Below are positions 1 through 45,144 of a DNA stretch of 64,000 bases, in pieces. The stretch is from Deltaproteobacteria bacterium. Lineage in GTDB: Bacteria > JADJOY01. Location: NCBI GenBank assembly GCA_016713535.1, contig JADJOY010000008.1, forward strand, positions 212,580-276,579, written 5' to 3'. How positions within the stretch are numbered: the stretch's first letter is position 1; every line of letters begins with the position of its first letter. The position numbers and the translations under genes are program-made. Below the pieces are notes generated by a model, which saw only the letters and a list, made by a program, of their open reading frames with translations, did not search any database and was not told the origin of the DNA.

Positions 1-501
1 CGCGGGTCACGCGCACCGCCTTGTCGCCGCTCATCACCACCGCGCGCGCGACGGTCACCACCGGCATGCCGAGGAGCTCGCCGAGGAGCGCGGGCACCAC
101 GCCCTGGTCGTCGTCGGAGGCCTGGCGTCCGCACAGGATGAGGTCCGCGCCGCCGGTCTTGGTGACGTAGGCGGCGAGCAGCTTGGCGATCGCGGCGAGG
201 TCGAGCGAGGCCGCGTCGACCTGCACGTGGCCGGTCTCGTCGGCGCCGAGCGCTGCCGCCTGGCGCAGGATGCTCGCCGGGTCGGTGCCGGCCGAGACCA
301 CCGCGAGCTTCGCGGCGAGGCCGCTATCCTTCAGCCGCAGCGCGGCCTCGATGGCCTGCTCGTCGTAGGCGTTCATGAGCCGCGGGATCGCGGTCTGGGT
401 GAGGGTCTTGCCGTCGGCGCCGATCTGCAACCCGCCCGCGAGGGCGTAGTTGTTGACGGCGTCGGGATCGAGGACTTCCTTCGCGCAGACTACGATCCGC
501 A
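1..501 (-). CDS. etfB: Electron transfer flavoprotein beta subunit (EtfB), partial; the C-terminus runs off the window start
   Basis: Reverse translation from the ATG at 499-501 gives MRIVVCAKEVLDPDAVNNYALAGGLQIGADGKTLTQTAIPRLMNAYDEQAIEAALRLKDSG..., a typical EtfB N-terminus. It is absent from the ORF track because the frame leaves the window. Confidence 0.8.
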
Positions 502-513
502 TTCGTTCGCTCC

Positions 514-1965: not shown

Positions 1966-2077
1966 CGCGGTGGTCTCCGGGCCGGGAACGCGGGTGGGAC
2001 GCCTTCGCTTCAGGGGCGAAAACCGCGCGGATCGAAGCGCCGAGGAGACGCCGAGCCGAGCCGGTTTCCATCCAAAA

Positions 2078-2091
2078 TGAAACATGTTCTA
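2078..2091. promoter_or_regulatory. KstR-type operator TGAAACATGTTCTA (TnnAACnnGTTnnA) in the divergent NMO / P450 intergenic region
   Basis: Exact match to the 14-bp palindromic KstR consensus, recalled from mycobacterial cholesterol-regulon work. It sits between divergently transcribed catabolic genes. Confidence 0.6.
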
Positions 2092-8357: not shown

Positions 8358-9668
8358 ATGATCGAGATCGACGCAGACGCCGAGCAACGCCCCTCCGACG
8401 AGCCCGGCTGGTACGCGTATTACGTGTTGGGCCTGCTCTGGCTCGTCTACGTCTTCAACTTCGTCGATCGCCAGGTGCTCGCGATCCTCCTCGAGCCGAT
8501 CAAGAAGGACCTCGGCGCCTCCGACACCGCAATGGGGTTCTTGAGCGGCTTCGCGTTCGCACTCTTCTACACCGTTGCGGGGATCCCGATCGCGCGCTGG
8601 GCGGACCGCGGCACGCGCCGCACCATCATCACGATCGGCCTCGCGCTGTGGAGCGGCATGACCGCGCTCTCGGGGATGGCGCGCGGGTTCGTGGAGCTGG
8701 CGGCTGCGCGGGTCGGGGTGGGGGTCGGCGAGGCGGCCGGCAGCCCTCCCGCGCACTCGCTCCTCTCCGACTACTTCCCGCCGCACCGGCGCGCGACCGC
8801 GCTCGGGATCTACGCCGCTGGGGTGTACGTGGGGGTGATGCTCGCGTTCGTGGGCGGCGGCTACGTGGCGACCCACTTCAGCTGGCGCACGGCGTTCCTG
8901 CTGGTGGGGTTGCCGGGGCTTCCGCTCGCGGCGCTGGTGCGGCTCACGGTGCGCGAACCGGCGCGCACCGCGGGACAAGGGGTGGCGGCGAGCGACGACC
9001 GCCCGAGCCTGGGAGAGGTGCTGCGTTTCCTCGCGAGCAAGCGCTCGTTCGTGCTGGTGGTGGTGGCGGCGGCGTTCAACACCCTCGCCGGCTACGCGGT
9101 GCTGACCTGGGGCGCCTCGTTCCTGCGCCGGGTCCACGCGATGCCGATCGGGCAGGTGGGGACCTCGCTCGGGCTGATCGTGGGGATCGGCGGCACGCTC
9201 GGCTCGTGGCTGGGCGGCGTGCTCGCCGATCGGCTCGGTCAGCGCGATCCGCGGTGGTACGGGCTCGTCTCCGCGATCGTGTCGGCGCTCGGCGTGCCGT
9301 TCGCGGTGGCGTTCCTGCTCGCGCCGAGCGCCACGACGGCGCTGGTGGCTTTCACGCCCTATTACGTGCTGGCGCAGATGTACATCGGCGCGATGCTCGC
9401 GGTGACGCAGTGCGTTGTGACGCCGCGGATGCGCGCGACCGCCTCCGCGGTGGTGCTCTTCGTGCTCAACCTGTTCGGCCTCGGGCTCGGCCCGCTCGTG
9501 GTGGGTGCCCTCAACGACGCGCTCAAGGCGCGCCTCGGTGACGTCGCGATCCGCTACTCGCTGCTCGGCGTGGTCGCGGTGAGTGCCCTCTCGGTGCCCT
9601 TTTTCGTCGCGGCAGCCCGGCACATGCGCCGTGATCTGGGGGCGGGACCGGTCACTCGAGGTCGATGA
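8358..9668 (+). CDS. MFS transporter (Spinster-like subfamily)
   Basis: MIEIDADAE...WYAYYVLGLLWLVYVFNFVDRQVLAILLEPIKKDLGASDTAMGFLSGFAFALFYTVAGIPIARWADRG... has a 12-TM MFS signature. The upstream part of the long ORF is Arg-rich junk. Confidence 0.85.
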   Translation: MIEIDADAEQRPSDEPGWYAYYVLGLLWLVYVFNFVDRQVLAILLEPIKKDLGASDTAMGFLSGFAFALFYTVAGIPIARWADRGTRRTIITIGLALWSGMTALSGMARGFVELAAARVGVGVGEAAGSPPAHSLLSDYFPPHRRATALGIYAAGVYVGVMLAFVGGGYVATHFSWRTAFLLVGLPGLPLAALVRLTVREPARTAGQGVAASDDRPSLGEVLRFLASKRSFVLVVVAAAFNTLAGYAVLTWGASFLRRVHAMPIGQVGTSLGLIVGIGGTLGSWLGGVLADRLGQRDPRWYGLVSAIVSALGVPFAVAFLLAPSATTALVAFTPYYVLAQMYIGAMLAVTQCVVTPRMRATASAVVLFVLNLFGLGLGPLVVGALNDALKARLGDVAIRYSLLGVVAVSALSVPFFVAAARHMRRDLGAGPVTRGR

Positions 9669-17319: not shown

Positions 17320-18625
17320 TCAGCGGGTCGGGTCCTCGTGGAAGTGGGACGGCTCTTTGTTGGCGAGCCGGGAGCGGGCCTGCGACGCGGCGCGTTTGCC
17401 GCTCAGGTACGCGGCCTCGACGGTCGCGGCGATCGGCGAGCTCTCGGTGGCAGAGCCGGCCCAGAAGAGCGCACCGGTGTCGGGCGCGGCGAGATCGCGC
17501 CGCGCACCGACGCCGCCGGGACGGAGGAACGTGTAGCCGCCGAGCGCGAAGGGGTCGGTCGACCAGTCGATGCGCTTGAAGCCGGTGAGCAGGTCCTTGG
17601 GCTTTGCAGCCGGGAAGTGGCGCACCAGGTCGGTCGCGACCAGCTCGAGCGCCGCCTTGTCGTCGAGAGAGGCGACGTGCGCCGCGCGCGGCCCCGTGAA
17701 GTAGGCAGTCAGCACCGGCCAGCGCCGGGGCGCCCCGTAGAAGACGTTCCAGAACAGCGTCACCGGGCCCACCGCGCAGGCGAGGGTGTTCATGGCGTCG
17801 GGCCAGAACGGCTCGCGGAAGCGCAGCAGGAGCTTGCTGACGGGGCCCATGACGATGCGCTCGAGGGCGCTCCTCTTGGTAGCGGGGAGCTCGGGCTCGA
17901 AGCGGATATTGCCCGACTTGAGCACCCCCACCGGCAGGGTGGTGATCGCCGTACGCGCCTCGATCTCCTCGCCGGAGACGCCGCGGACCGTGACCTGCTC
18001 GCGGCGGAAGCGGATCGACTCGACGACGAAGCCGTGCTGCACGTCGAGGGGTTTGCCCATGTGCTGGATCACCGCGTCGTAGCCCGAGGCGACGCGGTGG
18101 TTCACGCCGCTCTCGAGGTGGACGACGCCGTCGTCGACGAGCCCGAGCAGGCCGACCTCGTCCAGGCTCGCGGGCAGGTGAGCGGTGAGCACCATCGATG
18201 CGAGCGCGCGGCCGCGGCCGCGGTAGCCCTTGCGATCGAGGAACTCGCGGCCCCGAGATGTCGGGCGGACGGACGCGGCGGATCTGGTGGAGGATCGGGA
18301 AGGTCGGCCAGATCTCGGGGTGCAGGAGGATCAGCGGCAACCAGTTGGTCTTGCCGCCGACGTTGAACATGAAGCCCTTCATGTTGGGGGTGGGACGGGT
18401 GGCGACACCCGCGGCGCGGACGTCGGGCCAGGTCGCGGCCCCCACGCCGTGCACGAACTCGGCGCCCGCCTCGACCGGATCCGAGACCAGGTCCCGGATC
18501 GACCACACCCGCCCCCCGACGCGGTCACGCGCTTCCAGCACTCGCACCGAGAGCCCGTGCTGTGCGAGGTCGCGTGCCGCCGCGATCCCGGCCATCCCGG
18601 CGCCAATCACCACCGCATCCAGCAT
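17320..18625 (-). CDS. FAD-dependent amine oxidase (flavin-containing) with an apparent frameshift near 18200-18240
   Basis: The N-terminus in one frame reads MLDAVVIGAGMAGIAAARDLAQHGLSVRVLEARDRVGGRVWS... (GxGxxG plus the amine-oxidase signature). The C-terminus in another frame reads ...TGALFWAGSATES...AATVEAAYLSGKRAA. Neither frame is complete on its own. Confidence 0.7.
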
Positions 18626-18735
18626 TCGTGTCCCTCACGGATCGAAAGCGCAACGCATATCCCACCGGCCCGCCGCGCTTCAACAACATTCGTCTCCGGA
18701 GCGCGCCTAGCTCGAGGTGGGGTTATGTTCCGCAC

Positions 18736-19485
18736 ATGGCCCGGCGAGGCGCGCGCGCGAGGCTCGCGTGGGGGATGGTGGCGGTGCTGGTGACGGCCGA
18801 GATGGGCGCGGCGGCCGGCTCGAGCTCCTCGACGGCGAAGCCGAGCGGCCCGTCGAGCGCCACCCCGGTCCGCAAGCGAGAGCCCGCGAGCACGACCAAG
18901 CCCGCCACGGCGAAGCCGGCTGTGCGCACCGGTGCCTCCCCCTCCGAGCTCAGGGCGGAGTCGGTGGTGGCGACCACCACCGCCGCCGAGCTCGAGCAGC
19001 GCCTCGGGCGCGCCGCGCGCGCCCCGGAGGCGGTCTTCGAGGTGCCGGGAACCGAGTGGCGGCTCAGGATCGCGTCGCTGGCGGTGGCCATCACGAGTGG
19101 GGACGTGGTCATCTCGCTGGTGCCGGATCCCGACGTGGGCACGATCCGGATCCGCGGTCGCCCGAGCCTGGTGGGCCGGAACGCGTGGCGCGCCGAGCGC
19201 CTCCGGATCTCGGTGGATACGCCGATCCTCGCCGAGCAGCTCGAGACCTGGATCGGCCAGCAGATCCGCGGCACCGAGCCGCGCTCGCTGGACGCGATCT
19301 TCGGCCCCAGCGCTACCTTCACGAGCACGCTCGCCGAGGGCGCGGCCCGGCCGCGGGTGCTGCCGCTCGTGAGCGAGATCCGCGCCGGCCGCCTCGAGCC
19401 GCAGTCGCTCTCCGTCGAGGGCGCGGCGATCCGCCTCGCCGCCGAGCTCAAGCCGGATGCGCCGGCTGCCGCGCCCGGGCGCTGA
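18736..19485 (+). CDS. Hypothetical secreted/anchored protein
   Basis: MARRGARARLAWGMVAVLVTAEMGAAAG is a signal-like N-terminus. The remainder is moderately complex with no recognizable domain. It is divergent from the amine oxidase. Confidence 0.45.
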   Translation: MARRGARARLAWGMVAVLVTAEMGAAAGSSSSTAKPSGPSSATPVRKREPASTTKPATAKPAVRTGASPSELRAESVVATTTAAELEQRLGRAARAPEAVFEVPGTEWRLRIASLAVAITSGDVVISLVPDPDVGTIRIRGRPSLVGRNAWRAERLRISVDTPILAEQLETWIGQQIRGTEPRSLDAIFGPSATFTSTLAEGAARPRVLPLVSEIRAGRLEPQSLSVEGAAIRLAAELKPDAPAAAPGR

Positions 19486-19521: not shown

Positions 19522-20667
19522 TCACACGATGCAGGGTGTCGGCGCGTCCAGGACGGTGCTCGCGACCAGCTCCTCGAGGTAGCGCGTGTCCCACCACGAG
19601 AGCTGCCAGTGCTTGGCGCGCCGGAAGAAGAGCTGGATGTCGTGCTCGATGGTGAAGCCGATGCCGCCGTGGACCTGCTCGGCCTTGGCGGTGACGTCGC
19701 GGAACATCTGGCACGCGAAGAGCTTGGCCATGGGGGCCAGACGCTCGATCGGCCGCCCGGTTGCGCGCGCCCACGCGGCCTCGTAGACCAGCGTACGGCC
19801 GCCGCTCACCAGCGTCGCGCAGTCGGCGAGGTAGTGGGCGATCGCCATGAAGGCACCGATCGGCTTGCCGAACTGCTCGCGGATCTTGGCGTAGTGGTTG
19901 GTCATCTCGAGGGCGCGCTCGGCGCCGCCCGCCGCCTGCGCGGCAAGGTAGATGATTCCCTCGAGGAGCGTGTCGCTCCAGGTCTTCCAGCCGCTGCCGG
20001 CGGCGCCGATGCGGTCCGCGGTGGACACCCGCACGTTGCTGAAGGTGACCTGGTACTGGCAGTCGGAGCCGAGGGTCTTCTGCTGGGTGAGGGTGACGCC
20101 AGGCGCCTTGGGATCGACCAGCACGAGATCGATCGCATCGGGAGCGTCGCCGGTGCGGACGAGCACGAGAAGGCGGGTGGCGGACGACGCGAACTGGACG
20201 TGGCGCTTGGTGCCGTCGAGGACCAGCGAGCCGCCATCGGCCTTCGCGCGCAGCGCGACACCCTTGGGGCCGTAGCCGCGGTCGGGCTCGAGCCAGGCGG
20301 GGGTGAGGATCACCTCGCCGGACGCGATCTTCGGCAGCCACGCCTTCTTCTGCTCGTCCGAGCCCGCGCGCAGGATCGCCCCCGCGCTCGCGACACAGCT
20401 CACGAAGTGGGGCGACGGCGCCAGCGAGCGGCCGAACTCCTCGTACACCACGACACCTTCGATCGCCGACTGGCCGGCGCCTCCGTAGGCCTCGGGCAAG
20501 GTGAGCCCGAGGACGCCGAGCTCGCCGAGCTTCGCCCACAGCTCGGGCGAGTAGCCGGTGGGATCGTCCTCCAGGGTGCGCAGGGTCGCGAGGGTGGCGT
20601 ACTGGTCGCACACGCCGCGCACCATGTCGCGCAGCATGTTCTGCTCGTCGTTGAATTCCAGATCCAT
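19522..20667 (-). CDS. Acyl-CoA dehydrogenase
   Basis: 381 aa: ...YGGAGQSAIEGVVVYEE...VLDGTKRHVQFAS...QVHGGIGFTIEHDIQLFFRRAK shows ACAD family hallmarks. Confidence 0.9.
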   Translation of the reverse strand: MDLEFNDEQNMLRDMVRGVCDQYATLATLRTLEDDPTGYSPELWAKLGELGVLGLTLPEAYGGAGQSAIEGVVVYEEFGRSLAPSPHFVSCVASAGAILRAGSDEQKKAWLPKIASGEVILTPAWLEPDRGYGPKGVALRAKADGGSLVLDGTKRHVQFASSATRLLVLVRTGDAPDAIDLVLVDPKAPGVTLTQQKTLGSDCQYQVTFSNVRVSTADRIGAAGSGWKTWSDTLLEGIIYLAAQAAGGAERALEMTNHYAKIREQFGKPIGAFMAIAHYLADCATLVSGGRTLVYEAAWARATGRPIERLAPMAKLFACQMFRDVTAKAEQVHGGIGFTIEHDIQLFFRRAKHWQLSWWDTRYLEELVASTVLDAPTPCIV

Positions 20668-20766
20668 CCGGTACCTCTCGCGTTGCTCTGGCGCGGCCGG
20701 TCCCTCGGCCGCCGCCGTTTCGTTGGACCGCCGCGAGGGACCGCGGTCGGTCAGCCGGTCAGCGAA

Positions 20767-21249
20767 TCACGGCTTCCACTGGGCTCCCTCGCGGGTCCAG
20801 GGGTTGTCGCTCGCGGTGGCGGGGAGCGCGACCCGCACCTTGCACTCCGTCATGAGCTTCTCGCCGACGCCGAGCTTCACGTCGAGGCTCGCCCAGCCGC
20901 AGCCCACGTCGTCGGTCTCGACCTTCTCGACCGTGGCGCGGAACACCATACGATCGCCCGGGAACACCGAGTCCTTCATGCGGAACTTCATGCGGCCGAT
21001 GCGCCCGTGAGGCCCGGTCCAGTCGGTGACGTAGCGCTCGAACCAGGCGGCCTGGTTGGGCGTGTTGAGGAAGATGTCCTGCACGCCGTTGCGGTTCACC
21101 GCGAAGTCCTTGTCGTGGTGCATGGGGCGGAAGTCGCGGGTGGCGAGGGCGCCGAGGACCACGGTGGTGGCGCTGACGTCGAAGGCGAGCTCGGGGACGA
21201 CGTCGCCGGCCCGGACGCGATCGAGGGTGAGCTTCACGGGCGTGGTCAT
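20767..21249 (-). CDS. MaoC-like (R)-specific enoyl-CoA hydratase, hot-dog fold (ChsH2-like partner)
   Basis: MTTPVKLTLDRVRAGDVVPELAFDVSATTVVLGALATRDFRPMHHDKDFA... is a MaoC dehydratase. A 4-bp overlap with the upstream hot-dog gene. Confidence 0.8.
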   Translation of the reverse strand: MTTPVKLTLDRVRAGDVVPELAFDVSATTVVLGALATRDFRPMHHDKDFAVNRNGVQDIFLNTPNQAAWFERYVTDWTGPHGRIGRMKFRMKDSVFPGDRMVFRATVEKVETDDVGCGWASLDVKLGVGEKLMTECKVRVALPATASDNPWTREGAQWKP

Positions 21250-21761
21250 CGGTTCCCCCGTCGATAGCCGAGGCCGGTGTAGATCTCCTTGCCGACCATC
21301 GTGCCGTCCTGGTTGAAGTACTCGACGTCGATCACCCAGAAGCGCCCGAGGCCGAGCTTGGTCTGCTTCAGGTCGCTCACGGAGCGCAGCACCTGGTGGG
21401 CGCGCAGGTGGTCGCCGGGGCGGATCGGCGCGTAGAAGATGACCTCGTTGTCGGTCATCACCGCCTCGGGCAGCTCGAGCCTCTCCTTGAGGTCGAAGTG
21501 GATCTGCAGCGGCAGGCGCTGCTTGGTGCGTCCGGGCGCCCAGTGGTGAGGGCGGAACCACACCGACATCATGGTGGGCGGAGTCATGAGGCCGCCGGTG
21601 ATCTCGCGGGCCACGGCCTCGTCCCAGAAGAGTGGGTTGCCGTTCTGGGTGGAGGAGCAGCTCGAGTAGACGTAGCCCTTCTCGACCTCGAACTCGGGCT
21701 CTTCCTCGTAGCGGACCTGGTCGATCCAGCCCTTCACTTCGTCGGGTAGCGGCTCGGACAT
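21246..21761 (-). CDS. Hot-dog fold dehydratase N-terminal-type subunit (ChsH1-like partner)
   Basis: 171 aa, ...NPLFWDEAVAREITGGLMTPPTMMSVWFRP...; a hot-dog family protein paired with the downstream MaoC gene. Confidence 0.75.
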   Translation of the reverse strand: MSEPLPDEVKGWIDQVRYEEEPEFEVEKGYVYSSCSSTQNGNPLFWDEAVAREITGGLMTPPTMMSVWFRPHHWAPGRTKQRLPLQIHFDLKERLELPEAVMTDNEVIFYAPIRPGDHLRAHQVLRSVSDLKQTKLGLGRFWVIDVEYFNQDGTMVGKEIYTGLGYRRGNR

Positions 21762-21808
21762 CGTGATCTCCGGTCAGCGGCGGAACGGGTGGGCGAAGGC
21801 TTCGATCG

Positions 21809-22951
21809 TCATTCGACCGCGCCCGCGGCGCGCAGCTCCGCGATGCGCTCGGGCGTGACGCCGGCGGCGGCCAGAAGGGCGTCGGAGTCGGTCTCGGTGG
21901 CGGCGCGAGCGGCGTGCGGCGGGAGCTCCTCGCGCCCGCCGGCGAGGACCTCGCTCACCTGACGGAAGGCGCCGCGCTCGGGGTGCCGGGCCTGGACGAA
22001 GGCGCGACGGGCAACGAACTGATCGTCCTCGGCGACCTCGGGGATGGTGCTCACCGGCGCGACACAGGTGTCCTTGGCGGCGAGCTCGGCGATCCACGCG
22101 TCGCGATCGCGGGTGGCGAAGGCGGCGCGGAACGCGGCGCGGATGTCCTCTTGCTTCGCGTCGTCGAGCTGGTGCGGGATCCACTCGGCGCAGCCGAGGA
22201 GCTTGCAGAGGTTGGCGAAGAACGCGGGCTCGATCGCGCCCACCGAGAGCCAGCGGCCGTCGGCGCAGGCGTAGACGTCGTAGCAGGCGTAGCGGCCGGT
22301 GAGGATGTCGCCGCCGGGGCCGGGCTCCTCGCCGGTGGCGAGGAAGCGATCGACGTGGAGCGACATGAGGTGGAGGACGCCGTCGGCGACCGAGACGTCG
22401 AGCCACGCGCCCGCGCCGCTGCGCTCGCGCTGGAGGAGCGCGGCGAGGATCGCGATGACCGCGTGCATGCCCCCCGCGGCGCTGTCGGCGACGGTGGCGC
22501 CGGGGATCGCGGGGCCACCGTCCTCGCGCCGTCCTGAGCAGTGAAGGAACCCGCCGACGGCGAGATAGTTGATGTCGTGGCCGGCCCAGGTCGCGCGCGG
22601 CCCGTCCTGGCCGTAGCCGCTCGTCGAGCACAGGATCGCGCGCGGGTTCACGGCGCGGAGCGCCTCCCAGCCGATGCCGAGGCGCGCCACCACGCCGGGC
22701 CGGTAGCTCTCGATCACGACGTCGGCCTTCGCGGCCAGCGCGAGGAACGCCTCCTTGCCCTCGGCAGCCTTGAGGTCGATGCGGACGCGCTTCATGCCGC
22801 GCCCGGCGCCGTAGGAGAAGAAGGGAGGTTCGATCTGCACCGAACCCTTCTTCGCGGTCGGGCTCACCTTCACGACGGTCGCGCCGTAGTCGGCGAGGAT
22901 CCGCGAGGCGCGCGCCGCCGGACCGACGCTCGCCAGGTCGAGCACCGTCAC
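21809..22951 (-). CDS. Family III CoA-transferase (CaiB/BaiF/Frc family)
   Basis: MTVLDLASVGPAARASRILADYGATVVKVSP...IESYRPGVVARLG...CSTSGYGQDGP shows the family III motifs. The true start may be slightly upstream. Confidence 0.85.
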   Translation of the reverse strand: MTVLDLASVGPAARASRILADYGATVVKVSPTAKKGSVQIEPPFFSYGAGRGMKRVRIDLKAAEGKEAFLALAAKADVVIESYRPGVVARLGIGWEALRAVNPRAILCSTSGYGQDGPRATWAGHDINYLAVGGFLHCSGRREDGGPAIPGATVADSAAGGMHAVIAILAALLQRERSGAGAWLDVSVADGVLHLMSLHVDRFLATGEEPGPGGDILTGRYACYDVYACADGRWLSVGAIEPAFFANLCKLLGCAEWIPHQLDDAKQEDIRAAFRAAFATRDRDAWIAELAAKDTCVAPVSTIPEVAEDDQFVARRAFVQARHPERGAFRQVSEVLAGGREELPPHAARAATETDSDALLAAAGVTPERIAELRAAGAVE

Positions 22952-22994
22952 GCCCCTCGAGCCGAACCAGCGAGCCGGTCATGGGGCCGCGCCT

Positions 22995-23075
22995 CCCCGG
23001 CGTGAAGGGCGCGACGGTCGGGCTCGCGGGGGGACGGAGCCCCCCGCGCTACGAACGGCGCCGTAGCGACGGGGG
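22995..23075. repeat. REPIN-like doublet (gcgggggg-acggag-cccccgc-gCTACg ... cGTAGc-gacggggg-ttccat-cccccgtc)
   Basis: Two inverted GTAG-anchored palindromes separated by about 10 bp, in the gap between the CoA-transferase start and the ACAD stop. Confidence 0.6.
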
Positions 23076-23140
23076 TTCCATCCCCCGTCGCCTGGTGCAC
23101 GAGGCAGATCGGTCGAAGTCATGGAGGCCGCTCGGTTCAC

Positions 23141-24322
23141 TCAGTAATTCCTCGGAAGCCCCAGCCCGCGCCGCGCGATGATGTTTTTCTGGATCTCCGA
23201 CGCGCCGCCGCCGATGGTGTCGATCACCGTGTAGCGGTAGGTCTTCTCGGCGCGGCCCTTCATGGGGGCCTCCTCGGTGCCGACGCGGAGCTGGCTGCCG
23301 GGACTCGCGAGGTCCATCGAGGCGTCGGCGACGCGCTTCGAGAGCTCGGTGGCGTAGAGCTTGTACGTCGAGGCCTCGACGGTGGGCGGCGCTCCGCCCC
23401 GCATCGCGGCGCTCACGAATTTGAGGCCGAGGACGCGTGCGACCTCGGTCTGGGTGACGAGCTGGGCGATCTGGCTGCGCACCAGCGGATCGGCGCTGAG
23501 CGGTTCGTCGTCGCGGGTGGCGGTACGCGCCCACTCGCACAGCACCTCGACGCGCGCCTGGATCGGCGCGAACGTGAACATCGTGAAGCGCTCGAGGTCG
23601 AGCGCCTCCGAGATGTACTGGAAGCCCTTGCCGAGCTCGCCCACGCGATAGTCGTCTCCCACGTACACGTCGTCGAAGAACACCTGGTTGGTGATCTCGT
23701 CGCCGATGGTGGGCATCGACTGGACGGTGAGGCCCTTGGCCTTCATCGGCAGCAGGAAGAGCGTGATGCCGGCGTGCTTGGGGGCGTCCGGGTTGGTACG
23801 CGCGCCCACCCAGTACCAGTCGGCGAAGTGGGCCGAGGTGGTGAAGATCTTCTGCCCGTTGAGGCGCCAGCCCTCAGCATCGCGCACCGCGCGGAGCTGC
23901 ATGTTGGCGGCGTCGGAGCCCGCCTCCGGCTCGCTGTACCCGATCGCGAACTCGACCTCGTTGCGCAGGATCTTGGGCAGGAACTCGCCCTTGAGCTTGG
24001 CGCTGCCGTGGCGGATCAGGGTCTTGCCGATGATACCGACGCCCTTGCCGATCTGCGGCGCACCGCGCCCCGCGAGACGCTCGTTCAGGAGGTACTCGTA
24101 GACGCCGCTCTGCTCCGAGCCGCCGTGCTCCCTGGGCCAGGTGAGACCGAGCCAGCCGCGGTCGGCGATCTTGCGCATGAACGCGCGCCGCGGCGGCGTG
24201 TCGACGAGCTGCGCCATGTTCTCGCGCGTGACGTCCATGACCTCGGGATCGCGGTTCTCGTCGAGGAACCGGTCCACGTCCGCGAGGAAGTCGTGCTCTG
24301 CGTCGGTGAAGGCGAAGTCCAC
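23141..24322 (-). CDS. Acyl-CoA dehydrogenase
   Basis: 393 aa: ...WLGLTWPREHGGSEQSGVYEYLLNERLA...GYSEPEAGSD...GGGASEIQKNIIARRGLGLP is canonical for ACADs. Confidence 0.9.
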   Translation of the reverse strand: MDFAFTDAEHDFLADVDRFLDENRDPEVMDVTRENMAQLVDTPPRRAFMRKIADRGWLGLTWPREHGGSEQSGVYEYLLNERLAGRGAPQIGKGVGIIGKTLIRHGSAKLKGEFLPKILRNEVEFAIGYSEPEAGSDAANMQLRAVRDAEGWRLNGQKIFTTSAHFADWYWVGARTNPDAPKHAGITLFLLPMKAKGLTVQSMPTIGDEITNQVFFDDVYVGDDYRVGELGKGFQYISEALDLERFTMFTFAPIQARVEVLCEWARTATRDDEPLSADPLVRSQIAQLVTQTEVARVLGLKFVSAAMRGGAPPTVEASTYKLYATELSKRVADASMDLASPGSQLRVGTEEAPMKGRAEKTYRYTVIDTIGGGASEIQKNIIARRGLGLPRNY

Positions 24323-24367
24323 GGCGGCCCCCGGAGATCCTGTGGCAAGCGTCTCTGTTCGACCCGC

Positions 24368-24790
24368 TCAGGGAACGACGAAGCTCATGGCGCCCTCGAC
24401 GGCGACGGCGCCAGCCTGATTGGTGCACACCAGCTCGACGTCCACGCACCGCTCGCCGTTCGCCTCGTACTTGCGGGCGACCTTGCCCGAGCAGGTGATG
24501 AGGTCGCCGGGGAATAGCGGCGTCTTCCAGCGCACCTTGGTGCGACGCACGTTCTCGGGGCCGAGCCAGTTGGTGGCGTAGGTGTTGAGCACGCCGGCCT
24601 GATACATGCCGACCACCAGCGGGCGGGTGAAGCCGGACGCCTGCGCGAAGTCGACGTCGTGGTGGATCGGATTGAAGTCACCCGAGGCGCCCTGATACCG
24701 CACCACGTCGGTCAAGGTGATGGGGCCGACGGTCCAGGGCTCCGGTCCCTGGCCCTCGACGAGGCTCTCCCACGCGATGGCCGACGTCAT
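24368..24790 (-). CDS. MaoC-like enoyl-CoA hydratase, hot-dog fold
   Basis: MTSAIAWESLVEGQGPEPWTVGPITLTDVVRYQGASGDFNPIHHDVDFAQASGF... A 4-bp ATGA overlap with the upstream hot-dog gene. Confidence 0.8.
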   Translation of the reverse strand: MTSAIAWESLVEGQGPEPWTVGPITLTDVVRYQGASGDFNPIHHDVDFAQASGFTRPLVVGMYQAGVLNTYATNWLGPENVRRTKVRWKTPLFPGDLITCSGKVARKYEANGERCVDVELVCTNQAGAVAVEGAMSFVVP

Positions 24791-25245
24791 CAGCCGCCCT
24801 CCTCGGGGTTCTTCGCGGTCTCGACGCCGGTGAGACGCGCCTCGGCCACCAGGTTGCCGGCTTCGTCGCGGTACTCGGTGACCATCACCGCGAACGTCAT
24901 GGTTCCCCCGCGCTTGCCCTGCTTCTCGAAGATCTTCTCGATCCGCGAGGTGCCGATGAGCCGCGTGCCGGCCCGGGGCGGTGGCCCGTGGAACACGAAC
25001 TCCTGCTCGGCGTGCATGCCGCGCTTCGGGTCCATCCGCACCTTTTCCCACGGGTTGCTGCCGGGGACGCGGGTCTCCCAGAAGAACGCGGTGGTGAGAA
25101 AGGTGGGCGGGCAGGCCGGATGGTGGCCCTCGAAGTGAGCGGGGTGCGTCGACTTCGTCGCGGTCGCGAACTCGTGGATCTTGCCGCGCTCGACGTCGAG
25201 CGCGAAGGGAACGCCGGTCTCGCCGAGTGCCGCCTTGTCGACCAT
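24790..25245 (-). CDS. Hot-dog fold dehydratase N-terminal-type subunit
   Basis: 151 aa: MVDKAALGETGVPFALDVERGKIHEFATATKSTHPAHFEG... pairs with the downstream MaoC gene. This is the second copy of the module. Confidence 0.75.
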   Translation of the reverse strand: MVDKAALGETGVPFALDVERGKIHEFATATKSTHPAHFEGHHPACPPTFLTTAFFWETRVPGSNPWEKVRMDPKRGMHAEQEFVFHGPPPRAGTRLIGTSRIEKIFEKQGKRGGTMTFAVMVTEYRDEAGNLVAEARLTGVETAKNPEEGG

Positions 25246-25303
25246 GGATCGCCTCGCTGCCGCCTTCTCGGTCGCGGGTCGCGCGCGCGGCGCGGCCCGA
25301 GCC

Positions 25304-26086
25304 TCAGGGATGCTGACTGCTCACCGCGACGCACTCGCCGGTCATGTAGCTCGACAGGTCGCTGGCCAGGAACATCATCACGTTCGCCACTTCCCAGGGC
25401 TCGGCACCGCGGCCGAACGCTTCCTTCTGCTCGAGCTCCTCGAGCAGCCCGTCGGGCATCACCTTGGTCAGGAACTTGTGGGTGGCGAGGCTCGGCGCGA
25501 CCGCGTTCACACGAACGCCGTGCTCCGCCGCCTCCAGGGCGACGCAGCGGGTGAGCGCCATCACGCCCGCCTTCGCGGCGGCGTAATGGGCCTGGCGCTC
25601 CTGGGCGCGCCAGCCGAGGACGGACGCGTTGTTCACGACGGCTCCGGTGCCGCGCCGGTACATGTGCGGCAACATCGCCCGTAACATGCGGAAGGTGCCG
25701 GTCAACGTGATGCCGATCACCGCGTTCCACTGATCGTCGGTCATCTCGACGATCGGCGCGTTGCCGCCGAGGCCGGCGTTGTTGATCAGTACGTCGACGT
25801 GGCCGAGCTCCGCGACGGCGGCGTCCACCAGGGCTCGCACCTGCGCTTCCTCGGCGACGTTGCAGAGCGCGGTGGGCGGTCGTCGCCCGGTGAGGCGCTC
25901 GAGCTCCGCCGCGGCTTCACCGAGACGGCGCTCGTGGATGTCGCTGATCATCACCGTGGCGCCCTCTTCGGACGCGCGGCGGGCGGCGGCGAAGCCGATC
26001 CCGGTGCCCGCCGCGGCGGTCACCAGGACGTTCTTTCCGGCGAGCAGCGCGTGGCCGGTGGGATAGGGCGGCGGCTTGACGGTCAT
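25304..26086 (-). CDS. SDR family NAD(P)-dependent oxidoreductase
   Basis: The motifs VLVTAAAGTGIGFAAARR, NNAG and YAAAKAG are the SDR signatures. Confidence 0.85.
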   Translation of the reverse strand: MTVKPPPYPTGHALLAGKNVLVTAAAGTGIGFAAARRASEEGATVMISDIHERRLGEAAAELERLTGRRPPTALCNVAEEAQVRALVDAAVAELGHVDVLINNAGLGGNAPIVEMTDDQWNAVIGITLTGTFRMLRAMLPHMYRRGTGAVVNNASVLGWRAQERQAHYAAAKAGVMALTRCVALEAAEHGVRVNAVAPSLATHKFLTKVMPDGLLEELEQKEAFGRGAEPWEVANVMMFLASDLSSYMTGECVAVSSQHP

Positions 26087-26093
26087 GACGAAA

Positions 26094-26107
26094 ATAGAAC
26101 ACGTTTC
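26094..26107. promoter_or_regulatory. KstR-type operator TAGAACACGTTTCA (TnnAACnnGTTnnA) in the divergent SDR / LLM-P450 promoter region
   Basis: Second exact match to the KstR consensus, located between two divergently transcribed catabolic operons. Confidence 0.6.
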
Positions 26108-26195
26108 ACTTCGGCGCCGCGAGTGTAGTGACCGCCCCAGACGGTGTAAAGACGGCGCCTCGCGTGAGCGTCACGCGCATCGAGGAGCAGGGCTC

Positions 26196-27038
26196 ATGAT
26201 GAAGCTCGGGGTCACGATCTTCGCGACCGACCAGTGCATGGACGTGGTCGAGCTCGCCCGCGAGAGCGAGGCGCGCGGCTTCCACTCGCTCTACATCCCC
26301 GAGCACACCCACATCCCGACCAGCCGCCGCACCCCGCCGCCCACCGGCGACGCGGTGCTGGCCGAGGAGTACAAGCGCACCCTCGATCCGTTCGTGGCGC
26401 TCGGCGCGTGCGCGGCGGTGACGCAGAAGCTGGTGCTCGGCACCGGTATCGCGCTGGTGGCGCAGCGCGACCCGATCGTGTTCGCGAAGGAGATCGCCAC
26501 CCTCGACGTGCTGTCGAAGGGCCGCGCCGTGCTCGGCATCGGCTTCGGCTGGAACGAGGACGAGATGGAGGACCACGGCGTCACCTTCAAGGAGCGCCGT
26601 GACGTGGCGCGCGAGAAGATGCTCGCGATGCAAGCGTTGTGGGCGAACGAGGTGGCGAGCTTCGAGGGCCAGTACGTGAAGATCCCGCCGTGCTGGTCGT
26701 GGCCCAAACCTGTGCAGAAGCCGCGGGTGCCGATCCTGATCGGTGGCGGCGGCGGGCCCAAGCTCTTCGCGCACATCGCCGAGTATGCCGACGGCTGGAT
26801 CCCGATCGGCGGTGCGGGCGTGCGCGAGCTGATCCCGCAGCTCCACGCTGCGGTCGAGGCGCGCGGGCGCGACCCCAGGTCGATCCGCGTGATCCCGTTC
26901 GGCACGCTGCCCACGCCCGGGAAGCTCGACTACTACGCCTCGCTCGGCATCGACGAGGTGGTGCTGCGCATTCCGTCGGCTCCGCGCGACACGGTGATGC
27001 CCATGCTCGACGAGTTCCGGAAGCTGCTCCCGAGCTGA
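26196..27038 (+). CDS. LLM-class (luciferase-like) flavin/F420-dependent oxidoreductase
   Basis: MMKLGVTIFATDQCMDVVELARESEARGFHSLYIPEHTHIP...VLGIGFGWNEDE... A GAGGAG RBS sits 8 nt upstream. Confidence 0.85.
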   Translation: MMKLGVTIFATDQCMDVVELARESEARGFHSLYIPEHTHIPTSRRTPPPTGDAVLAEEYKRTLDPFVALGACAAVTQKLVLGTGIALVAQRDPIVFAKEIATLDVLSKGRAVLGIGFGWNEDEMEDHGVTFKERRDVAREKMLAMQALWANEVASFEGQYVKIPPCWSWPKPVQKPRVPILIGGGGGPKLFAHIAEYADGWIPIGGAGVRELIPQLHAAVEARGRDPRSIRVIPFGTLPTPGKLDYYASLGIDEVVLRIPSAPRDTVMPMLDEFRKLLPS

Positions 27039-27055: not shown

Positions 27056-28305
27056 ATGCGACTCGACGAGATCGACCTTACCGACCTCGATCGATTCCAG
27101 CGCGGCTCCCCCACGAGGCGTTCACGGCGCTGCGCCGCGAGGCTCCGGTGTGGTGGCACCCGCCCACGCCACGCGCGCCGGGTGGCGAGGGCTTCTGGGT
27201 CGTGAGCCGGCACGCCACGGCACGGCGCGTGCTGCTCGACACCCGGACGTTCTCCTCCGAGAGCGGGCCGGGACGCGACGGCGGCGGCACCACGCTCGTG
27301 GACTATCCGCGCGGGCAGGGGCCCGGGCAGATGATCACCATGACCGATCCGCCCGCGCACACGCGCCTCCGGCGGCTGGTGAACCACGGCTTCACGCCGC
27401 GGCGCTTCGCGGCCCTCGAGGCGGGGATCCGCGCCCGCGCGGCGCGCACGCTCGACGCGGTGGTGGCGCGCGGCGAGTGCGACTTCCTCGTCGAGGTCGC
27501 GGCCGAGCTTCCGCTCCAGGTCATCGCCGAGATCCTCGGCGTACCCCAGGACGATCGCCACAAGCTCTTCGCGTGGGCGAACGCCTTCACCGATCAGGAG
27601 GACGGCCAGAACGCGGGCTCGCTCGACGCCGCGCGCGCCGCGGCGATGGAGGCCTTCGGCTACGCTCACGCGTTGATCGAGCGAAAGCGCGCCGAGCCGG
27701 GCGCCGACATCCTGAGGGTGCTGGTCGCCGCCGAGCTGCCCGACGAGGACGGCGGCCATCGCCAGCTTGACACGGTCGAGCTCGACCTCTTCTTCGTGCT
27801 GCTGCTCACCGCCGGCTCCGAGACCACGCGCAACGCCATCGCCGGCGGCCTGCTGGCGCTGATCGAGCGCCCCGACGCCTGGGACAGGCTTCGCGCCGAC
27901 ACCGCGACGCTCCTGCCGATGGCGATCGAGGAGCTGCTGCGCTGGACCTCGCCCACGGCCTACAACCGCCGCACCGCCACGGAAGACCTGGAGCTCGAGG
28001 GAGCGCGGATCCGCGCCGGTGACAAGGTGTCGGTGTGGTACGCGTCGGCGAACCGCGACGAGGCGGTGTTCGCCGAGCCGTTTGCGCTCGATCTCGCGCG
28101 CCAGCCGAACGAGCACCTCGCGTTCGGTCACGGCCCGCATCTCTGCCTGGGTGCCCCGCTCGCGCGGCTCGAGATGCGGGTGATGTTCGAGGAGCTCCTC
28201 GCGCGCGTGGCGCGGGTCGAGCTCACCGCCCCCGTCGCGTGGATGCGCACCAACAAGTTCATCGGCCTGCGCCACATGCCGGTGCGCCTCTCACGCGCGC
28301 GCTGA
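27056..28305 (+). CDS. Cytochrome P450, CYP125/CYP142-like (steroid C26-monooxygenase clan), with a 1-nt frameshift in a C5 run at 27108-27112
   Basis: From the ATG at 27056, MRLDEIDLTDLDRFQRGSP reads in one frame. Adding one C restores HEAFTALRREAPVWWHPPTP...GFWVVSRHA, which parallels the CYP125 N-terminus. VARGECDFLVEVAAELPLQVIAEILGVP parallels CYP142/CYP125. The heme loop is FGHGPHLCLG. Confidence 0.85.
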
Positions 28306-28318
28306 AGAGCCGCGCGCC

Positions 28319-28705
28319 GTGCCAGCGAGGATCCCGATGCCCACGATCGACACGGTTCCCGCCCGCTACATGGAGGCCGTCAACGCCCGGAGCCTCGACG
28401 GTCTGCGCACCCTCTTCCGCGACGACGTGGTGCTCCACCACCCGATGGGGCTCTTCGAGGGGCGAGAGCTGGTGGTCGGCTTCTACGAGAACGCGGTGTT
28501 CCGGGCCAAGACCCAGCTCTCGGGCGACGGGCCGGTCTTGACCGGCGGCAGTACCGTCGCGCAGCAGATGCTCGGCCGCTTCCCCGAGGACAACGGCTTT
28601 GGCATGGCGATCCCGGATCAGCGCGCCATGGACCTCTTCGATTGCGATGCCGACGGCCGCGTCGCCACGATCACGATCTACTACCTGAGCTTCCCGTCGC
28701 GCTGA
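28319..28705 (+). CDS. SnoaL-like / NTF2-like protein
   Basis: 128 aa: ...RYMEAVNARSLDGLRTLFRDDVVLHHPMGLFEGRELVVGFYENAV... It is the last gene of the LLM-P450 operon. Confidence 0.6.
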   Translation: MPARIPMPTIDTVPARYMEAVNARSLDGLRTLFRDDVVLHHPMGLFEGRELVVGFYENAVFRAKTQLSGDGPVLTGGSTVAQQMLGRFPEDNGFGMAIPDQRAMDLFDCDADGRVATITIYYLSFPSR

Positions 28706-37954: not shown

Positions 37955-38727
37955 CTATCTCGGCGCGAGGACGCGGCGCAGGAAGCGCTGGGTGAAGGGG
38001 TGCGCGGGCGCGGTGAAGACCTGGTCGGCGGCCCCTTCCTCCACCTTGCGCCCCGCCTCCAGCACCACCACCCGGTTCGCGACCTCGCGCGCGAAGCCCA
38101 TCTCGTGGGTGACCACGAGCATCGTCATGCGCTCGCGGGCGAGGTCGCGCATGACCTCGAGCACCTCGCCGACCAGCTCGGGGTCGAGGGCGGAGGTGGC
38201 CTCGTCGAAGAGCATGAGCGCCGGTTCCATGGCGAGCGCGCGGGCGATGGCGACGCGCTGCTGCTGACCGCCCGAGAGGCGTGCCGGGTACTCGTCGCGT
38301 TTCTCGGCGAGGCCGACGCGCTCGAGGAGCGCGAGCCCGCGCTCGGTCGCGGCGGGCGGGCTCTCGCCCTTCACCCGCACCGGCGCCTCGATCACGTTCT
38401 CGAGCGCGGTGAAGTGGGGAAGAGGTGAAAGCGCTGGAACACCATGCCGATCCGCGCGCGCTGCGCGTCGACCTCGCGCTCGGGTCGCGCCACCCAGCGG
38501 GTGCCGTCGTGGCGCTCGCCGATCGGCTTACCGTCGAACCACACGTGCCCGCTGGTCGGCGGTGAGAGGTGGTTGATGCAGCGAAGCAACGTCGACTTCC
38601 CCGAGCCGCTCGGGCCAATGACCGCCACCACCTCGCCGCGCGCCACGCCGAGGTCGATGCCGGCGAGCACCTCGGCCTGGCCGAAGCGCTTACCGACACC
38701 TTCGAGGCGAAGCAGCTCGTCGCTCAC
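37955..38727 (-). CDS. Polar amino-acid ABC transporter ATP-binding protein, with an apparent frameshift near 38400-38445
   Basis: The N-terminal half carries Walker A GPSGSGKST in the frame of ORF 38392..39354. The C-terminal half carries LSGGQQQRVAIARAL and Walker B in ORF 37955..38395. A GTG start with a GGAG RBS sits at 38727. Confidence 0.75.
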
Positions 38728-41972: not shown

Positions 41973-42979
41973 TCACACGGCCCCGTCGGGCCCCAGCAGC
42001 CGCTCCACGGCCAGCTCGGGCGCCAGCTCACCGCGCTCGACCCTCGCCTCGAGCTCCGCGAGCTGCTCCGCGACGCCCGCGCGGAGCAGGAACCGGGCGT
42101 GGAGCTGTTCGTCGAGGAGCGCGCGCATCCACTCGCGCGACTGACGGGCGCGCCGTGCCGCGAACGAGCCGCGCTCGAGGCCGTTGGCGCGGTGCGCCTC
42201 GACGGTCCGCCACAGCTCCTCGATGCCGTCGCCGGTCTTCGACGACACCGTCACCACGGGCACCTTCCAGCCGTCCTCGGCGGCGCTCAGGTATTCGAGC
42301 GCGCGCTGGTAGTCGACGCGGCTGCGGCTGGCGCGAGAGAGGTTGTCGCCGTCCGCCTTGGTGATCGCGATCAGGTCGGCGAGCTCGATGATGCCCTTCT
42401 TGATCCCCTGCAGCTCGTCACCGGCTCCGGCGAGGAGCAGCACCAGGAAGCAGTCCACCATCGAGTGGACGGTGGTCTCTGATTGGCCGACGCCGACGGT
42501 CTCGACCAGCACCACGTCGTAGCCGGCCGCCTCGCAGACCAGGATGCTCTCGCGGGTCTTGCGCGCGACACCGCCGAGGGTGCCGGCGGTGGGCGAGGGC
42601 CGGATGAACGCGGCGGCGTCGACCGAGAGCCGGCTCATGCGGGTCTTGTCGCCGAGCAGGCTGCCGCCGGTGCGGCCGCTGGTGGGATCGACGGCGAGCA
42701 CCGCGACGCGGTGGCCGGCGCCGGTGAGGCGGGTGCCGAGAGCATCGATGAGCGTGCTCTTGCCGGCGCCCGGCGGTCCGGTGATGCCGACCCGGCGCGC
42801 GCCGCCGGTGTGGCCGGAGAGCCGCTCGAGGACCTGGTGGGCGAGGCGGGTGTGGGCCGCGGCGGTGCTCTCGACCAGGGTGATCGCGCGCGCCAGCGTC
42901 ACGCGGTCGCCGGCGAGGACGCCGGCGACGTAGTCGTCGAGGGTGAGGGCCCGCTTGGTGGCCGGGCGTGCGCCGTCGC

Positions 42980-42983
<4 letters not shown>
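41973..42983 (-). CDS. meaB: Methylmalonyl-CoA mutase-associated GTPase MeaB
   Basis: P-loop [12 protein letters not shown], plus DxxG and NKAD motifs. A 4-bp overlap with mutB. Confidence 0.9.

Positions 42984-45141
<2,158 letters not shown>

Positions 45142-45144
<3 letters not shown>

Follow-up and report, generated by a model that had tools for sequence, protein, structure and literature searches.

A putative KstR-type operon for (R)-specific β-oxidation of bulky methyl-branched acyl-CoA esters, with sterol side chains as the likeliest substrate

We analyzed a block of eight genes (positions 19522-26086, every one intact and on the minus strand) within a 64-kb stretch of DNA from a Deltaproteobacteria bacterium (contig JADJOY010000008.1), hereafter called the window. 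The gene identities, residue patterns, synteny, and operator sequence observed there lead us to propose, with moderate confidence, that the block is a single operon encoding most of an (R)-specific β-oxidation of bulky 2-methyl-branched acyl-CoA esters, that it is probably repressed by a KstR-like regulator, and that its likeliest substrate is a sterol side-chain C26-CoA ester. The genes are transcribed in the order SDR (short-chain dehydrogenase/reductase), hdA, hdB, ACADL, a CoA_transf_3 protein, hdA2, hdB2, and ACADS, in which hdA/hdB (pair 1) and hdA2/hdB2 (pair 2) encode hot-dog proteins and ACADL and ACADS are acyl-CoA dehydrogenases (ACADs) by domain content (Table 1).

The G+C content of the window is ~70%, and raw lists of open reading frames (ORFs) are full of spurious frames. 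Coding frames were therefore chosen by third-position G+C, which is 0.91–0.97 in the called frames. Over the CoA_transf_3 gene, the longest ORF (21774-22982) is in the wrong frame and has no Pfam match; the coding frame is 21809-22951. Pfam analysis of the called ORFs agreed with the gene families named in an initial annotation of this stretch, which had also placed both hot-dog pairs exactly (20767-21761 and 24368-25245) and had noticed the SDR at the end of the block, where it is the first gene of the operon. The 4-bp overlap described for both pairs was found in pair 2 (ATGA, 21246-21249), and the genes of pair 1 overlap by 1 bp (TGATG at 24790). The order given in that annotation, an ACAD followed by a hot-dog pair, is reversed in the direction of transcription, so that each hot-dog pair precedes an ACAD.

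From their residue patterns, ACADL and ACADS look like the α- and β-subunits of one α2β2 heterotetramer and not like duplicates of each other. In ACADL, the Glu of an LDLER motif (Glu-244) occupies the position of the IVD/LCAD-type base and is invariant in 28 orthologs, as are SEPxAGSD, TTSAHF, and Pro-89. Across 30 orthologs of ACADS, an invariant Trp (Trp-358) is found at the MCAD-type catalytic Glu position and a Gly at the IVD-type base position, and ACADS has GYG where GSD is expected. The sequence QxxGGxGF, which from general knowledge of ACAD structures we take to be the motif contacting the ADP part of flavin adenine dinucleotide (FAD), is invariant in ACADS and lost in ACADL. According to the published description of α2β2 ACADs, the catalytic Glu resides in the α-subunit together with the isoalloxazine and the substrate site, the β-subunit contacts the ADP-ribose of FAD, and the equivalent of Pro-89 opens the ChsE4/LCAD pocket to bulky substrates (PMC11153573). 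Because the motif losses of ACADL and ACADS are complementary and match this description, we favor the interpretation that both belong to one enzyme.

Searches against solved structures placed ACADL closest to ChsE4/FadE26 (PDB entry 4x28_A, 1.4e-57) and Tcur3483 (4e-56), with 198 bits compared with 138 bits (3.5e-39) for the next match. In NCBIfam, its top match was pimC_large, far below the cutoff, whereas ACADS scored best on AcrC (193 bits); its other matches included pimD_small (162 bits) and IpdE2 (148 bits), and these scores likewise fell far short of the cutoffs. The pimC and pimD matches raised a dicarboxylate (PimCD-type) pathway, which we rejected because of these low scores and because a racemase would have no role there. 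An exact-sequence look-up of ACADL returned no record.

The CoA_transf_3 protein is proposed to be an α-methylacyl-CoA racemase-type enzyme. It had been annotated as a CaiB-type CoA-transferase, an assignment that we could not uphold. In the PDB, it matched the Mycobacterium tuberculosis racemase MCR (1x74) with 1.7e-63 (218 bits) and Far with 3e-55 (191 bits), whereas matches to true family III CoA-transferases were 1.6e-37 or weaker and did not exceed 133 bits. Its scores on the NCBIfam transferase models were 100–143 bits, compared with cutoffs of 413–750. In the alignment to 1x74, the equivalents of His-126, Asp-127, Asp-156, and Glu-241 are kept (GHDINY, VAD, and GAIEP). In MCR, His-126, Asp-156, and Glu-241 are the catalytic residues, and the main-chain nitrogen of Asp-127 binds the thioester carbonyl (PMC12682127).

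Both hot-dog pairs look like heteromeric (R)-hydratases. The initial annotation had read the coupled genes in this way, and at the sequence level our results agree: the genes overlap, and the Asp/His hydratase-2 motif is present only in the downstream subunit of each pair, hdB or hdB2. In hdB2 the motif reads RDFRPMH, and Asp-39 and His-44 (RDxRPMHHD) are invariant in 25 homologs; at the same position its partner hdA2 has NGNPLFW, in which Asp is replaced by Asn and His by Phe, a change kept in 25 orthologs. In pair 1, hdB contains GDFNPIHHD, and the conserved Asp/His motif is absent from hdA across 20 homologs.

The same annotation had assigned both pairs to the ChsH1/ChsH2 type, which was correct in part. 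Pair 2 has ChsH1 and ChsH2 as its closest solved relatives: the PDB sequence matches of hdB2 were ChsH1 chains only (2.6e-15), those of hdA2 were chains of the ChsH2 N-domain only (1e-3), and an AlphaFold2 (AF2) model of hdB2 (pLDDT 85) had ChsH1 (4w78_B) as its best fold match, with 31% identity and a TMt of 0.85. The DUF35 domain belonging to this type is missing from hdA2, and pair 1 is nearer to HadAB-type dehydratases. The PDB matches of hdB were HadB (1.6e-10), PhaJ (7e-8), and ChsH1 (2e-7); for the pair, HadB and Rv0504c are nearer than ChsH1, and hdA gave a weak Pfam match to MFE-2_hydrat-2_N and a HadA-like NCBIfam match. The two pairs probably differ in substrate; they may serve branched and unbranched cycles, respectively, or different steroid intermediates. 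In one Myxococcales metagenome-assembled genome (MAG), a single reading frame joins hdA2 to hdB2, giving a protein of 363 aa with a linker of ~45 residues (L079:2559-3650). This is possibly a natural fusion of two hydratase subunits or an assembly artefact; it is a single case that hints at physical association.

A search of one genome per species, made with an alignment of hdB2 homologs, yielded 80 loci, all of them in MAGs or other genomes of uncultured bacteria, which belong to Myxococcota, “Deltaproteobacteria,” Acidimicrobiia, Actinomycetes, Binatia, and other groups. ACADL, CoA_transf_3, hdA2, hdB2, and ACADS occur in this same order and tightly packed in 52 of the 80, and most of the others are interrupted by contig ends. 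We refer to these genes as the five-gene core. Its proteins share 57–76% amino acid identity with those of the window, and in almost all 52 loci the two hot-dog genes overlap, by either 4 or 1 bp. When plasmids were searched for the core in a cultured host, the sole match was a hot-dog pair of 50% identity from Azospirillum B510, where it belongs to a different CoA-ester cluster.

Several genes recur beside the core in the related loci L010–L085 (e.g. L076:5745-6992, L069:2863-4053, L074:4255-5712, and L071:4417-5589). An SCPx-type thiolase (PRK06157) is encoded in 27 loci, and an HMG-CoA-synthase-like protein with a fused DUF35 domain in 17. An F420-type LLM oxidoreductase and a second α-type ACAD paralog, ~60% identical to ACADL, occur in 16 loci each, and an Ltp-type thiolase with a free DUF35 protein in ~15. 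In addition, a separate 415-aa family III CoA-transferase is present in 34 related loci. It scores ~240 bits on transferase models and may be the activating enzyme in those genomes; no such gene lies within the window.

The SDR is proposed to be a 3-hydroxyacyl-CoA dehydrogenase. It scored 427.6 bits on NCBIfam PRK07831 (cutoff 336), and its best PDB match was a Mycobacterium smegmatis SDR (3o38, 2.5e-88), followed by the (3R)-hydroxyacyl-CoA dehydrogenase of MFE-2 (2et6). The trio SDR-hdA-hdB adjoins the five-gene core only in the four closest relatives (82–93% identity). Elsewhere it travels without the core as a separate mobile three-gene unit. In L086 (7400-19600), it follows an acyl-CoA ligase gene and lies beside a run of genes in the order ECH-CoA_trans-CoA_trans-NMO-ECH-ACAD-ACAD-thiolase, the ECH-CoA_trans-CoA_trans-NMO part of which resembles the steroid ring C/D genes echA20-ipdA-ipdB-ipdC. 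In L087 (4383-10875), it follows an adjacent ACAD β/α pair near a 550-aa FAD_binding_2 protein that is possibly KstD-like.

The promoter region of the operon contains a KstR-type palindrome, TAGAACACGTTTCA (core TnnAACnnGTTnnA), within the 109-bp divergent intergenic region, suggesting that the operon is probably repressed by a KstR-like TetR regulator. The validated MSMEG_3519 site, which is listed by Kendall et al. 2007 (PMC1995591), has exactly the same 14-bp core. The motif was matched three times in the window compared with 0.04 matches expected by chance. The SDR-proximal box is identical and in the same place in the relatives L001, L006, L008, and L009, and similar boxes are found in divergent promoters beside SDR-hdA-hdB (L086, L087) and upstream of ACADL (L073, L081). 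A sigma-70-like promoter candidate lies upstream of the operator; the consensus scan gave two sites compared with 0.3 expected in shuffles, which is weak evidence.

Two further boxes deserve mention here, one in the window and one in its close relatives. The first, TGAAACATGTTCTA (2078-2091), belongs to a divergent promoter flanked by an NMO-family gene (868-2085, minus strand) and a second P450 gene (2084-3316, plus strand); Rv1894c, which is KstR-regulated in M. tuberculosis, is an NMO-family gene. The other, TGGAACGTGTTCTA, is a second conserved KstR-type box of the close relatives (L001:12356-12369, L006:13448-13461, and L008:8798-8811). The L001 copy falls within the coding region of the amine oxidase; at the corresponding place in the window, there is no exact match.

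Transcribed divergently from the operon are genes for an F420-dependent LLM-class oxidoreductase, a P450, and a SnoaL-like protein. The LLM oxidoreductase scored 244.5 bits on NCBIfam TIGR03619 (cutoff 166.9), and homologs with 61–67% identity adjoin the five-gene core in ~8 other loci. The P450 gene starts at the ATG at 27056, and a 1-nt deletion in a C-run at ~27108-27112 shifts the frame to the ORF 27148-28305. We modeled the intact 417-aa ortholog P0241 from L001, which is 73–74% identical to the window protein. The best match of its AF2 model was the sitosterol-bound reconstructed CYP125MRCA (8vxi), with 50% identity and a TM of 0.86–0.90, followed by CYP126A1 (46–48% identity), CYP124 (36–38%), and the natural CYP125A1/A3 (35–37%). 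By convention, P450s with >40% identity belong to the same family. The function of CYP126 is unknown, and CYP124 acts on methyl-branched lipids. Together, the KstR-type operator in the promoter, the CYP125/CYP126-like P450 in the divergent operon, and the ChsE4-like ACAD support the steroid role put forward in the initial annotation and suggest, rather than establish, a sterol substrate.

How the subunits assemble, in which order the reactions take place, and what the substrate is we infer from these observations as follows. The divergently encoded CYP125-like P450 would oxidize a terminal methyl group to the carboxylate, with CoA activation encoded elsewhere. The CoA_transf_3 protein, acting as an α-methylacyl-CoA racemase, would supply the 2S (25S) epimer, from which the ACADL/ACADS α2β2 dehydrogenase would make the 2-enoyl-CoA, passing electrons to electron transfer flavoprotein (ETF). 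ACADL would provide Glu-244, the flavin-ring pocket, and Pro-89 to this enzyme, and ACADS, which has no base, would provide the motif contacting the ADP part of FAD. Water would be added by a heteromeric hot-dog hydratase, for which both hdA2/hdB2 (ChsH1/ChsH2-like) and hdA/hdB (a split MFE-2/HadAB-like hydratase 2) are candidates, and the SDR would oxidize the resulting 3-hydroxyacyl-CoA to the 3-ketoacyl-CoA. The final thiolysis or aldol cleavage would fall to a gene outside the window, in which neither tblastn nor Pfam analysis of the called ORFs found a thiolase or DUF35/Ltp gene; the initial annotation had already noted that a thiolase/Ltp2 gene is missing. SCPx/Ltp-type thiolases with DUF35 partners adjoin the core in many related loci.

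A number of observations weigh against this proposal. In Pfam, hdA2 matches FAS1_DH_region only and has no DUF35 domain. Two hydratase pairs stand beside a single dehydrogenase, a combination for which the proposal does not account. The called ORFs of the window include no acyl-CoA ligase, aldolase, steroid ring-degrading gene, or TetR-family (KstR-like) regulator, and one of the three KstR-type boxes (TAGAACGCGTTCGA, 44856-44869) lies ~290 nt inside mutB, the gene for the methylmalonyl-CoA mutase large subunit. The P450 was compared through an ortholog of 73–74% identity whose best match is a reconstructed ancestor and to which CYP126 and CYP124 are also close. The ACADL and ACADS genes lie three genes apart, unlike most described α/β pairs, and ACADS scored 220 bits to homotetrameric butyryl-CoA dehydrogenase-type enzymes, compared with 180 bits for Tcur3481 and 165 bits for ChsE5 (family profile). 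This family-profile search was intended to bring the steroid β-subunits to the top, and the homotetrameric enzymes stayed first. Finally, the core is found in lineages not known as steroid degraders.

Part of this evidence would suit a different substrate. The same enzymes could act on non-steroid methyl-branched lipids, such as isoprenoid acids (phytol-derived pristanic or phytanic acid) or methyl-branched fatty acids, in which case the KstR-like box would be the sign of a wider lipid regulon. Indeed, the combination of racemase, (R)-specific hydratase, and dehydrogenase also makes up the peroxisomal scheme for pristanic acid and bile-acid intermediates (PMC12682127), but among solved proteins those nearest to ACADL and hdB2 are the steroid enzymes ChsE4 and ChsH1, respectively. 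The phytanic acid-binding CYP124 is among the close P450 matches, yet the best of these, at 50% identity, is a sterol-bound CYP125. The MAGs in which the core is widespread belong to Myxococcota, Acidimicrobiia, and Binatia, which are not known for steroid degradation, and ring-degrading genes were not found in the window; on the other hand, the operator matches validated KstR sites, and SDR-hdA-hdB adjoins the IpdAB/IpdC-like ring C/D genes in L086. On balance, we think a non-steroid substrate rather unlikely.

The initial annotation had pictured the block as two nearly collinear, duplicated modules, each consisting of an ACAD and a heteromeric hydratase, which would carry out two successive side-chain shortening cycles on an acid activated by the CaiB-type CoA-transferase. 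It is true that the domain content recurs along the block and that there are two distinct hydratase pairs. However, by tblastn ACADL and ACADS share only ~31% identity over ~246 aa (two thirds of their length), the catalytic hot-dogs hdB and hdB2 share ~35%, and the non-catalytic hdA and hdA2 do not match each other. A search for DNA repeats between the two halves gave nothing more than a 46-nt match (74%) at the active-site motif of the hydratases, and these two comparisons ruled out a recent duplication. Dozens of genomes keep the core as a unit without SDR and pair 1. Since the core and the trio each occur separately elsewhere, the operon of the window is a junction of two conserved units and not two copies of one. 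Nor do two cycles agree with the ACADs, of which ACADS lacks a base at both known positions and the flavin-ring motifs, the losses being complementary as in the α- and β-subunits of one enzyme. As for activation of the acid, the catalytic Asp of family III transferases also occurs in the racemase subfamily, so that, by sequence alone, the CoA_transf_3 protein may transfer CoA; it nevertheless has the racemase-specific His-126/Glu-241 dyad and scores far better against MCR, and in the 34 loci mentioned above the core has a true family III transferase, of 415 aa, beside it. We consider the two-module arrangement very improbable. Equally hard to credit, and marginally more so, is the idea that the two ACADs are independent, with ACADS being either a homo-oligomeric dehydrogenase or oxidase with an unconventional catalytic residue or a non-redox protein of the ACAD fold. 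The best PDB and NCBIfam scores of ACADS are to homotetrameric short-chain enzymes, and three genes separate it from ACADL. Against this stand the complementary motif loss, the strict co-conservation of the two genes in one operon, the invariant Trp at the ACADS catalytic position, and L086 and L087, in which ACADS-like and ACADL-like genes are adjacent.

Going beyond the single operon, we offer as a tentative suggestion, one that we hold with less than even confidence, that the five-gene core is an undescribed dedicated unit, possibly a physical complex, for racemization, dehydrogenation, and hydration in the C25-methyl-branched first cycle of sterol side-chain degradation, and that KstR-like operators control it in members of the Myxococcota, Binatia, and Acidimicrobiia as well as in unclassified uncultured bacteria. 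To our knowledge, which rests on a limited literature, a conserved core operon with a racemase and a ChsH-like pair without DUF35 enclosed by α/β ACAD genes is new, as are its wide spread in uncultured lineages and its association with a KstR-type box outside the classical actinomycetes. The limited search that we made for Tcur3481/Tcur3483, PDB entry 3O38, and this gene combination returned nothing useful. If the suggestion is true, sterol catabolism would be present far beyond the groups known for it from previous work, Actinomycetota and Pseudomonadota. Should the sterol assignment be correct, it would suggest that KstR-type regulation reaches beyond the actinomycetes, and the core would provide a compact metagenome marker for sterol or branched-lipid side-chain degradation. 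The core is also a defined protein set for asking if its racemase, dehydrogenase, and hydratase function as a single unit. For annotation, the lesson is that two ACAD genes in an operon are not always two enzymes and that a CoA_transf_3 match is not always a transferase.

Table 1. Features of the operon, its promoter region, the divergent operon, and frameshifted genes of the window
Feature	Position	Strand	Remarks
SDR (260 aa), operon gene 1	25304-26086	-	Pfam adh_short_C2 1e-58
hdA (151 aa), pair 1 non-catalytic hot-dog	24790-25245	-	Pfam FAS1_DH_region 7e-16
hdB (140 aa), pair 1 catalytic MaoC subunit	24368-24790	-	Pfam MaoC_dehydratas 7e-18
ACADL (393 aa), proposed catalytic α-subunit	23141-24322	-	all three ACAD domains (Pfam)
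MCR-like protein (380 aa), proposed α-methylacyl-CoA racemase	21809-22951	-	Pfam CoA_transf_3 1e-85
hdA2 (171 aa), pair 2 non-catalytic hot-dog	21246-21761	-	Pfam FAS1_DH_region 9e-12
hdB2 (160 aa), pair 2 catalytic hot-dog	20767-21249	-	Pfam MaoC_dehydratas, weak
ACADS (381 aa), proposed non-catalytic β-subunit	19522-20667	-	Pfam ACAD domains, C-terminal domain match truncated
KstR-type operator palindrome TAGAACACGTTTCA (core TnnAACnnGTTnnA)	26095-26108	.	8 nt upstream of SDR start
Sigma-70-like promoter candidate TTTACA-17-TACACT	26122-26150	-	upstream of operator and SDR
F420-dependent LLM-class oxidoreductase, divergent operon gene 1	26196-27038	+	Pfam Bac_luciferase
CYP125/CYP126-like P450, divergent operon gene 2	27056-28305	+	Pfam p450
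SnoaL-like protein, divergent operon gene 3	28319-28705	+	Pfam SnoaL_2 4e-10; syntenic in L001, L006
Frameshifted amine oxidase	17320-18625, break near 18200	-	intact 434 aa in relative L001
ABC-transporter ATPase, split by frameshift	37955-38727	-	
Methylmalonyl-CoA mutase small subunit (mutA), split by frameshift	45142-47273	-	

Four genes in the 64 kb are frameshifted: the P450, the amine oxidase, mutA, and the ABC-transporter ATPase. Because four genes are broken within so short a distance, assembly homopolymer indel errors are the likeliest cause, and not gene decay; the P450 and the amine oxidase are both intact in the relative L001. Directly downstream of ACADS and convergent with it lies a conserved gene without a Pfam match (18562-19485, plus strand), whose coding signal starts at ~18700 and which has a 227-aa counterpart at the equivalent place in L001.

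The spacer between the ACADL and racemase genes (22952-23140) is unusually long, at 189 bp, and contains a GC-rich hairpin at ~23023-23091. ARAGORN called a tRNA-Pro there (101 nt, 22996-23096), which Rfam did not support, the region being this hairpin; the same applies to an ARAGORN tRNA-Thr at 9169-9250, for which Rfam likewise gave no support. The spacer as a whole folds no better than shuffles (z = −1.3). In relatives, the spacer contains unrelated GC-rich hairpins and, in L004, a tandemly duplicated element. Its length had made us suspect a frameshift at the N terminus of the racemase gene, which we dismissed, as 378–380 aa is the usual length of the orthologs.

Elsewhere in the window are an ETF subunit gene cut by the window end (2-502, minus strand), a gene for an EtfD-like membrane Fe-S/CCG oxidoreductase (3858-5975, plus strand), a methylmalonyl-CoA mutase-MeaB operon (41973-47273, minus strand), and a gene for a fused IcmF-like B12 mutase of 1158 aa (48340-51816, plus strand). 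These genes fit a neighborhood of lipid and propionyl-CoA catabolism. The products of the ETF/EtfD-like and methylmalonyl-CoA mutase genes would take the ACAD electrons and process propionyl-CoA, both of which are general functions.

Among known systems, the closest parallels to ACADL and ACADS are the α2β2 steroid side-chain ACADs ChsE4-ChsE5 (FadE26-FadE27) of M. tuberculosis and Tcur3481-Tcur3483 of Thermomonospora curvata, whose α2β2 class also includes PimCD and IpdE1-IpdE2. As in ChsE4-ChsE5, two distinct ACAD-fold proteins are encoded in one operon, here in 52 complete loci. Likewise, ACADL has the catalytic Glu and the flavin-ring site, and ACADS lacks both and keeps the motif for the ADP part of FAD. 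ACADL also keeps the Pro-89 of ChsE4, which is, with Tcur3483, its best solved match. Unlike in ChsE4-ChsE5, the genes for a racemase and two hydratase subunits lie between those of the two ACADs, and ACADS is no nearer to ChsE5/Tcur3481 than to homotetrameric butyryl-CoA dehydrogenases. With scores far below the NCBIfam equivalog cutoffs, the two proteins are not orthologs of any of the named α2β2 pairs. The MCR-like protein shares the CoA_transf_3 fold and the equivalents of His-126, Asp-127, Asp-156, and Glu-241 with MCR/Rv1143, Far/Rv0855, and human AMACR. It differs from MCR in an N terminus that is ~8 residues shorter and in the location of its gene between the two ACAD subunit genes of a conserved operon.

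The hot-dog pairs resemble ChsH1-ChsH2 of M. tuberculosis (PDB entries 4w78 and 4wnb) in that each consists of a catalytic and a non-catalytic hot-dog subunit whose adjacent genes overlap. The C-terminal DUF35 domain through which ChsH2 docks the Ltp2 aldolase is absent from hdA2, and the window contains no gene for such an aldolase. In ~15 related loci, the core is adjoined by a free-standing DUF35 protein and an Ltp-type thiolase-like gene in place of this fused domain. SDR, hdA, and hdB together give the domain set of MFE-2, which combines hydratase 2 with a (3R)-hydroxyacyl-CoA dehydrogenase and has split mycobacterial counterparts in Hsd4A/Hsd4B. Unlike MFE-2, the set consists of three separate polypeptides, and the SDR belongs to a family, PRK07831, without a named function.

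With regard to regulation, a predicted operator lacking a kstR gene in the window, and one box inside a coding region, set the operon apart from the mycobacterial KstR regulon (Kendall et al. 2007), which includes CYP125. In agreement with that regulon, the TnnAACnnGTTnnA core is located in a divergent promoter, and genes for an F420-type LLM oxidoreductase, an NMO, and P450s adjoin the boxes. The enzyme families are thus all known, from mycobacterial cholesterol catabolism and from the peroxisomal oxidation of bile acids and pristanic acid; it is their arrangement that is new.

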